Shown: positions 1 to 1,691 of the stretch, piece by piece
Layout of the letters: every line of letters begins with the position of its first letter
How positions within the stretch are numbered: position 1 is the stretch's first letter
NCBI GenBank assembly: GCA_001805445.1
Contig: MHGF01000034.1
Span: forward strand, 33,929 to 97,928
Direction of reading: 5' to 3'
From: Omnitrophica WOR_2 bacterium GWF2_43_52
GTDB taxonomy: Bacteria > Omnitrophota > Gorgyraeia > Gygaellales > UBA12090
DNA: 64,000 nucleotides
Program-made: the position numbers and the translations under genes
The notes under the pieces: model-generated
What the model was told of the DNA's origin: nothing
Databases searched by the model: none
The model's input: only the letters and a program-made list of their open reading frames with translations

Positions 1-386
1 AACACCCATGTATGTGTATGGGGATCTAACACCATTTCATACCCGTCTATAGTAATTCTGCCTTCTCTTCGCGACTGCTTCTTGTGTAAGGGCATCAGGC
101 TCATATCCGTCTTTAAGTCTTTGGCTTGAATATATGAGCCGTCTCGCAGCATGAATTTGTGATCCGGGGTGCAGATTATTTCCTCATCGCTATCCAAAAC
201 TATTTTTATCACTTCCGCGTCTTTACGGCTGATTCGCGGTTCAACGATTTTTTCTATGCCAAGACGGCCATCTGTTTTTATTGTATAGCAATAGTTGGTT
301 TTTCCTTCTTTCCATTCTTTAGCCAAATCCTTAAAAGATACATTCCTACCGTCTGTCAAGGCCACCAAAACATTCCCCCCAAAACA
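1..386 (-). mobile_element. GyrB mini-intein, N-terminal ~128 codons (C-terminal end lies beyond window start)
   Basis: Minus-strand translation continuous with gyrB: ...[12 protein letters not shown]|[128 protein letters not shown]. Cys1 codon at 386..384. Block-for-block similar to the Ssp GyrB mini-intein ([38 protein letters not shown]) at the same GDSAGG insertion site. Confidence 0.8.
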
Positions 387-1691
387 TCCACCGGCACTAT
401 CGCCCTCGACGATATACAACTCGCACAGCGCGGGATCCCGCTCTGAGCAATCGGCGAGCTTTCCCGGCAGACCTGCTGATTCAAGCGCGCCTTTTCTGCG
501 GGTAAGTTCGCGGGCCTTGCGCGCCGCCTCGCGGGCGCGGCTTGAAAGAATTGCCTTATCCGCTATCTTATTTGCTACTGAAGGGGTTTCCTCAAAAAAA
601 GTGGTTAAGGCGTCAAACACTGCTGAGGCCGCTAAACCTTCTACTTCGGAATTACCTAATTTGGTTTTAGTTTGGCCTTCATATTGGGGGTTAGGAATTT
701 TTACCGAAATGACGGCGGTTAATCCTTCCCGCACATCATCGCCGCTGATGGCTATATCGTTTTTTAAAAGGTTTTTCCCTTTCGCGTACTGATTGATGGC
801 GCGGGTAAGCGCGGATTTAAAACCGGAAAGGTGCGTTCCTCCCTCTACTGTATTAATGTTATTGGCAAAGGAAAAGATATTTTCAGAATACCCGTCATTA
901 TATTGGAGCGCGGCTTCAAGCTGTATCCCCTCTTTTTCTTTCTGGAAATAGATAACTTTATTGTGCAGCGGATTTTTGTTCTGGTTTAAATAATCAATGA
1001 AAGAAACAATTCCACCGGAAAATTTAAACTCCGCGCGTTTTTCCGTGCGTTCGTCCGAGATGGTTATTTCCAGCCCTCTGTTTAAAAAGGCAAGTTCCCG
1101 TAACCGTTGAGACAATGTATCGTACGAATACTCTATATCCTTAAAAATTTCCTTATCCGCCTTAAAGGTAACCTTGGTTCCTGTGGTTTTACTCTTACCG
1201 ATTGGGGTAAGTTTGGTCGCTGTTTTTCCCCTTTCGTAACGCTGATGATGAATTTTTCCGTCGCGCTTTACCTCAACCTCAAGCCATTCTGAAAGGGCAT
1301 TGACGACGCTCACCCCCACGCCGTGAAGCCCGCCGGAAACCTTATACGCCTCGTGGTCAAATTTTCCTCCAGCGTGAAGCGTGGTCAACACCACCTCTAC
1401 CGCCGGCTTTTTCTCGGTTTTATGGATATCCACGGGTATCCCTCGCCCGTCATCCGTCACGCTTACGCTGTTATCCGGGCGGATCGCCACATCTATTTTT
1501 GTGCAGGAGCCTGCCAAGGCCTCATCTACCGAATTATCCACTACCTCGTATACCAAATGGTGTAAGCCGCGCGTATAGGTATCCCCGATATACATTGCCG
1601 GCCTGCGCCTGACTGCTTCGATACCCTCTAATACCTGAATGGTTGTCGCGTCGTAACTATGCGATTTTTTTTCTTTTAGCTCTTCTGCCAT
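387..1691 (-). CDS. gyrB: DNA gyrase subunit B, N-extein (ATPase and part of TOPRIM up to GDSAGG)
   Basis: ATG at 1691..1689. Translation [59 protein letters not shown]... matches the canonical GyrB N-terminus. The frame stays open to the intein junction. Confidence 0.9.

Follow-up and report, generated by a model that had tools for sequence, protein, structure and literature searches.

The GyrB intein of Synechocystis sp. PCC 6803 (Ssp GyrB) has a native length of 435 aa, and it was reportedly the first intein recognised, by Dalgaard et al. in 1997, with a nuclease of the HNH and not of the LAGLIDADG type. The natural Ssp GyrB intein carries an endonuclease domain that was deleted by engineering to obtain the mini-intein (PMC3620165). 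In the S11 split form of the Ssp GyrB intein, the 156 aa are divided into 150 + 6, and the C-intein is the hexapeptide GVFVHN, which is followed by Ser (PMC2794532). Novikova et al. (PMC4760082) catalogue 33 GyrB inteins from Actinobacteria, Chloroflexi, Cyanobacteria and Proteobacteria, and further ones from archaea.

We analysed the gyrB gene of Omnitrophica WOR_2 bacterium GWF2_43_52, the first part of which lies at the left edge of a 64-kb stretch of DNA (hereafter, the window). With a probability that we estimate at about 0.92, the gyrB insert is a complete 433-residue class-1 intein with an HNH homing endonuclease, predicted to be bifunctional, and located inside the TOPRIM sequence EGDSAGG/SAKQGR, where the slash marks the insertion point. 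The gyrB features found in the window are:

387..1691, minus strand: gyrB N-extein, codons 1-435 (translation; Pfam HATPase_c and DNA_gyraseB; TIGR01059)
384..386, minus strand: intein residue 1, Cys (TGT), codon 436, at the N-terminal splice junction GG/C (sequence)
72..386, minus strand: N-terminal splicing lobe, intein residues 1-105, with blocks A and B
159..170, minus strand: block B motif T73-P-D-H76 (ACC CCG GAT CAC; sequence and family alignments)
1..71, minus strand: linker and beginning of the HNH endonuclease (PHROG match), intein residues 106-128 and a further 2 nt

Window positions 1-1691 are read on the minus strand as a single open frame of 563 codons, which runs, as a previous reading of the letters alone (the sequence-only reading) described it, from the ATG at 1691 through VEGDSAGG to position 1 without a stop; this start codon is also the one chosen in public gene calls. 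Codons 1-435 match Pfam HATPase_c and DNA_gyraseB with 210 bits. This N-extein comprises the ATPase domain, the transducer domain and the beginning of TOPRIM, where VEGDSAGG provides the catalytic Glu, and it ends with IVEGDSAGG at window 387. The first residue of the insert is, as also proposed, a Cys, encoded by the TGT at window 386-384, directly after EGDSAGG as in class 1 inteins. In two family alignments this Cys1 is nearly invariant (36 homologues) and invariant (13 homologues), respectively. The TxxH signature of block B is present, and its T73 and H76 are invariant across the family alignments. According to NCBIfam, intein_Nterm (TIGR01445) matches residues 436-514, which are wholly inside the window, with 38.2 bits against a cutoff of 24.5, and the truncated piece inside the window already matches Pfam Intein_splicing (E=3e-7); the similarity is far greater than chance would give.

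The edge of the window cuts the intein after 128 residues (+ 2 nt). The strings and coordinates quoted in the sequence-only reading were all recovered in place, while its remark that no endonuclease domain was visible stands only in part: the window holds just 128 residues of the intein, but the last ~17 of them (window ~53..3) already fall inside the match to an HNH profile.

For the intein beyond residue 128, which the window lacks, the sequence was taken from other assemblies of this population. The dnaN product of the window (1991-3076, minus strand) is encoded by identical sequence on 24 or more public contigs, and five independent public assemblies of Omnitrophica WOR_2 bacterium GWF2_43_52 / GWA2_44_7 (L001, L002, L003, L004 and L006) were used for the comparison. 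L001 shows one mismatch to the window in 13,076 bases, L006 shows none in 4,992 bases, and L003 and L004 show three and two, respectively, in about 8,500 bases; L002 (GCA_003451255.1, DMEX01000081.1) is identical to the window from gyrB up to position 3911. All five contain a gyrB of 1239 codons, and this open frame recurs across different samples, in assemblies of ENA, NCBI and Logan. The precursor is divided into an N-extein of 435 aa, an intein of 433 aa (residues 436-868) and a C-extein of 371 aa. In L002 the intein occupies positions 10502-11800, of which window 1-386 is the first part. The exact protein is deposited in GenBank as OGX00043.1, OGX20418.1, HAH20688.1 and HBG62983.1, all named "DNA gyrase subunit B". 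The C-terminal junction that had been predicted to lie just beyond the window, HN/S-AKQGR, was found exactly, on five contigs with 0-3 mismatches over 5-13 kb.

The five gyrB translations are identical except for one substitution in each of two assemblies. L003 shows T446K (codon 446, window 355) and L001 shows N466K (codon 466, window 294); both are nonsynonymous, both lie in the N-terminal intein lobe, and these numbers are too small to interpret. Codons 446 and 466 are the only gyrB differences between the window and these two assemblies.

The completed intein matches Pfam Intein_splicing as one domain over intein residues 10-433, with 74.7 bits (cutoff 35.8). NCBIfam intein_Cterm (TIGR01443), with a cutoff of 15.6, reaches 32.5 bits, and on the full precursor the gyrB equivalog (TIGR01059) reaches 1005 bits; both pass their cutoffs, as intein_Nterm does. 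The residues of class 1 inteins, Cys1, Thr73/His76, His432, Asn433 and Ser+1, are complete and conserved across the family, and the Hint fold is present. In the five assemblies, outside the window, the C-terminal His-Asn is followed by Ser+1 and the host protein resumes in frame: right behind the intein, Pfam Toprim continues from profile position 13, with DNA_gyraseB_C next. The exteins joined in silico give a GyrB of 806 aa, whose spliced junction aligns without gaps to the solved GyrB 8qqi_B (E=2e-79). Removal of the insert restores a protein colinear with its host family, and close relatives that lack the insert show the identical empty site. The sequence-only reading had placed an intein in the GyrB TOPRIM motif EGDSAGG/S, and the intein profiles above cutoff and the resumption of Toprim after the insert agree with it.

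That reading also named the alternative of a disrupted gyrB pseudogene, to which an assembly chimera of gyrB and unrelated sequence can be added. The window does end inside the insert, with the C-extein beyond view, and L002 diverges from the window inside dnaA, which indicates that some contigs of MAGs from this population are mosaic. The leftward continuation in the five assemblies shows no stop, but the C-terminal block of an intein and an in-frame C-extein with Toprim and DNA_gyraseB_C. Moreover, the same 1239-codon frame recurs in assemblies from different samples in three resources, the splicing residues are all intact, gyrA is directly downstream, and a search with the full precursor found at least 119 additional GyrB proteins of full length, almost every one of which carries an insert of this size at the site. 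Because the profiles pass, Toprim resumes, the spliced junction is gap-free and the catalytic residues are conserved, we reject both the pseudogene and the chimera, to which we assign next to no probability. The intein is a genuine, intact and ordinary member of the GyrB HNH-intein family.

The order of genes in all five assemblies is dnaA-dnaN-dciA-gyrB-gyrA. Two further genes of the window are noted:

1676-1981, minus strand: dciA, 101 aa, helicase-loading factor of the DciA family (PF05258), between dnaN and gyrB
~9426-9797 (L001:3280-3651), minus strand: gene of the 23S rRNA intervening-sequence protein family (PF05635), 123 aa

The dciA gene overlaps the start of gyrB by 16 nt. The PF05635 gene is embedded in a cluster similar to type IV pilus / T2SS systems (window ~5.2-14 kb), which includes PilM, PilO, T2SSF, pseudopilins and an MshE-type ATPase. 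DnaA-box-like 9-mers are clustered just upstream of dnaA (window 4579-4607), with a perfect DnaA box, TTATCCACA, at 4599-4607, and in the spacer between dnaA and dnaN (3177-3218). Allowing up to one mismatch, the window contains 23 DnaA-box matches, with 12.2 expected, and the region of the cluster is probably oriC. From position 3912 onward, inside dnaA, L002 diverges from the window: upstream of dnaA it carries rpmH-rnpA-yidD-trigger factor, and the window carries the pilus genes pilM/pilO. This divergence could reflect recombination between strains at the origin or, alternatively, a MAG contig that is chimeric. Scans of the whole 64 kb for tRNA genes and for Rfam families at gathering score gave no match.

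Between the two splicing lobes of the intein there are ~280 residues. This stretch contains HKHHIDFNKLNNNPDNVVRMLKEEHLELH and the HNH motif HKHHIDFNKLNNNPDN...EHLELH, and none of H153, H154, N162, N166, H175 and H179 varies among 31-36 homologues with 43-60% identity. Only four PHROG families match, all of them annotated as HNH endonuclease, the best with E=8e-8 over intein residues 112-199; these matches and the six invariant residues identify the motif as HNH. Of 25 family members, 19 have a match to Pfam HNH_3 (the best with E=3e-6), and that of the copy studied here (E=0.005-0.02, 15-17 bits) is below the gathering score of 24.8. A profile search of the PDB sequences with the HNH region gave no match. 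The tertiary structure was examined in a model of the homologue P0007, 52% identical, in place of the intein itself. In this model the HNH motif forms strand-strand-helix, as for a beta-beta-alpha-metal nuclease, and what follows, as far as the C-terminal splicing lobe, consists of helices throughout. In the intein, residues ~198-338 comprise three repeats of about 37 aa each, with two helices and an invariant Trp (..LS..AK.QW.D..). Repeats 1 and 3 align in hhalign with E=5e-8, and the other pairs with about 2e-3. These helical repeats are plausibly a modular DNA-binding region of the HNH enzyme. Their location is:

L002:11093-11515, outside the window: Trp-containing repeats (hhalign)

The sequence-only reading had described the insert as a mini-intein that lacks a homing endonuclease, that is, a natural element with only a splicing domain, like the 156-aa Ssp GyrB mini-intein. 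The 105 residues of the lobe visible in the window do match the N-terminal part of that mini-intein, and some relatives carry shortened versions of 279-419 aa. Nevertheless, the intein is 433 aa long in all five assemblies, compared with ~130-200 contiguous aa without endonuclease insert for a mini-intein, and holds an HNH domain and helical repeats between its lobes. Aligned to the 156-aa sequence, the length of which agrees with PMC2794532, the intein is matched at residues 1-108 and 390-433 only; nothing in that sequence corresponds to residues ~109-389, which match HNH endonuclease families. As the Ssp GyrB mini-intein is itself an engineered deletion (PMC3620165), a block-by-block match at the N-terminus is uninformative about the absence of an endonuclease. 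We consider a natural mini-intein very improbable, and the description as such was abandoned in favour of the full-length intein with an HNH endonuclease.

A search with the intein gave 1080 protein matches, and the best 120, at E<=1e-87, are entered at NCBI under such names as "intein-containing DNA gyrase subunit B". The family is present in at least 596 GTDB species loci of bacteria and archaea: host groups include Omnitrophota, Patescibacteria, Margulisiibacteriota, Planctomycetes, Cyanobacteria, Chloroflexota and Elusimicrobia, as well as DPANN archaea, Methanosarcinales/Methanoperedens and Thermoplasmatota. Full-length identity to hundreds of homologues ranges between 43 and 60%. Homologous inteins have 429-435 aa, against 433 aa here, and the junction strings are the same in 37/37 complete homologues. 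Among 118 GyrB proteins with parsable junctions, the insert is 432-434 aa long in 113, and the HNH motif is likewise found in 113 of the 118.

Occupancy of the site was classified in the best 120 GyrB proteins by extein identity (78-89%, mostly Omnitrophota): 112 are empty, seven are occupied and one is unclassifiable. The patchy taxonomic distribution that had been stated for gyrB inteins is thus seen among the closest relatives, and it fits a homing cycle. The same counts bear on the proposed use of this copy as a marker, which holds in that presence or absence distinguishes lineages, but not in a phylogenetic sense, as the intein is a mobile character. Three of these 120 proteins show a different, LAGLIDADG-type intein elsewhere. 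Some Omnitrophota GyrB proteins have a second intein at another site, of the LAGLIDADG_3 type (PF14528); it is found in P0171, P0197, P0208, P0223 and P0248 (~1770-1800 aa) and in P0274, P0280 and P0300 (~1335-1360 aa), either alongside the HNH intein or alone with the GDSAGG/S site empty.

The GC content at third codon positions (GC3) is 35.6% in the intein and 50.3 and 46.1% in the exteins, in a window of 44.6% GC, and the C-terminal splicing lobe has a GC content of only 29.8%. Among the genome matches listed, the closest intein belongs to Magasanikbacteria, with 60% identity and exteins of only 58%, and genomes with 74-80% extein identity have inteins that are 48-58% identical. Intein and extein identities do not correlate among the matches listed (Spearman 0.006, n=51), a value to which we give little weight, since lists selected by score can distort correlations. 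Low GC3, patchiness and the lack of congruence between intein and exteins are indirect support that the intein is most likely mobile.

From the conserved residues and established intein chemistry we infer canonical splicing. The gyrB gene would be translated as a precursor of 1239 aa, predicted to be inactive as gyrase until spliced, since the TOPRIM Glu is in the N-extein and the DxD site (DADVDG) is in the C-extein. An N-S acyl shift at Cys1, aided by block B Thr73/His76, would give a thioester, which would be attacked by Ser+1 in a transesterification. Cyclisation of Asn433, aided by His432, would then free the intein, and an O-N shift would leave the 806-aa GyrB with the normal sequence ...GDSAGGSAKQGR... 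The predicted products are active GyrB and a free intein of 433 aa. As gyrB is an essential gene, splicing is expected to be efficient.

Residues about 110-390 would constitute the homing endonuclease, with an HNH (beta-beta-alpha-metal) domain and three Trp-containing repeats with a probable role in DNA binding. Most likely an intein-less gyrB is nicked or cut by the free intein, or perhaps by the precursor, and repair would copy the intein in. The predicted target is the DNA of the empty site, GAGGGCGATAGTGCCGGTGGA/AGTGCCAAGCAAGGGCGCGAC.

It is also conceivable that the intein is competent in splicing but its HNH domain is a dead relic; the intein would then persist without homing, since its exact removal from an essential gene is difficult. 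Decay of the nuclease is a normal phase of the homing cycle, shortened derivatives occur in relatives, and the HNH_3 score of this copy is sub-threshold. On the other hand, the putative catalytic and metal-binding residues do not vary among 31-36 homologues whose identity is only 43-60%, the Omnitrophota-type copies retain the HNH motif and hold their length almost throughout, empty sites are common in close relatives, so that targets exist, and the low GC3 suggests a residence too short for amelioration. A dead relic is on this evidence unlikely, although it deserves to be taken seriously, and conservation of the motif argues that the nuclease of this intein may still be active.

The intein is already known in kind: its site, size, architecture and junctions are as in the family, and its sequence is already deposited. 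The sole addition is the host phylum, from which more than 100 homologues are already public. The practical consequence concerns annotation, as the label should read "intein-containing DNA gyrase subunit B" and not plain "DNA gyrase subunit B". For protein engineering the intein offers nothing beyond its many known homologues, and no new question is opened by the finding.

Compared with other nucleases and inteins, the Omnitrophica element differs in several respects. Phage HNH_3 and I-HmuI-type HNH enzymes are free-standing or intron-encoded, whereas the Omnitrophica nuclease is embedded in an intein; I-HmuI has a NUMOD/HTH arrangement, in place of which the Omnitrophica intein shows the three-fold Trp helical repeat, and its Pfam score is below the gathering threshold. 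In contrast to PI-SceI and PI-PfuI, the nuclease is HNH and not LAGLIDADG. The Mxe GyrA mini-intein and the GyrA inteins differ in host subunit and site, and the separate LAGLIDADG_3 intein of some Omnitrophota GyrB proteins is absent from the GyrB of GWF2_43_52.

The closest systems are Ssp GyrB and the other cyanobacterial, archaeal and CPR GyrB inteins, with which the intein has in common the host protein, the insertion point GDSAGG/S and full-length homology within the GyrB HNH-intein family. The shared features are Cys1, block B TPDH and the C-terminal GVFVHN plus Ser. The kinship with cyanobacterial GyrB inteins that had been proposed from the letters is strengthened by GVFVHN/S, the very sequence published for the S11 C-intein of Ssp GyrB (PMC2794532); given this identical hexapeptide, the S11 split design is plausibly transplantable. 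Relative to the Ssp mini-intein, identity is estimated at about 51% for the N lobe and 75% for the C lobe. The engineered mini-intein and its S11 form correspond to the two lobes, 1-108 and 390-433, whereas the natural element keeps the ~280-aa insert, and an endonuclease domain is present in the Omnitrophica intein as in the natural Ssp GyrB intein (PMC3620165). The Omnitrophica intein differs from the known GyrB inteins in its host phylum, Omnitrophota, and in a sequence that is about half identical, and its architecture is the same.
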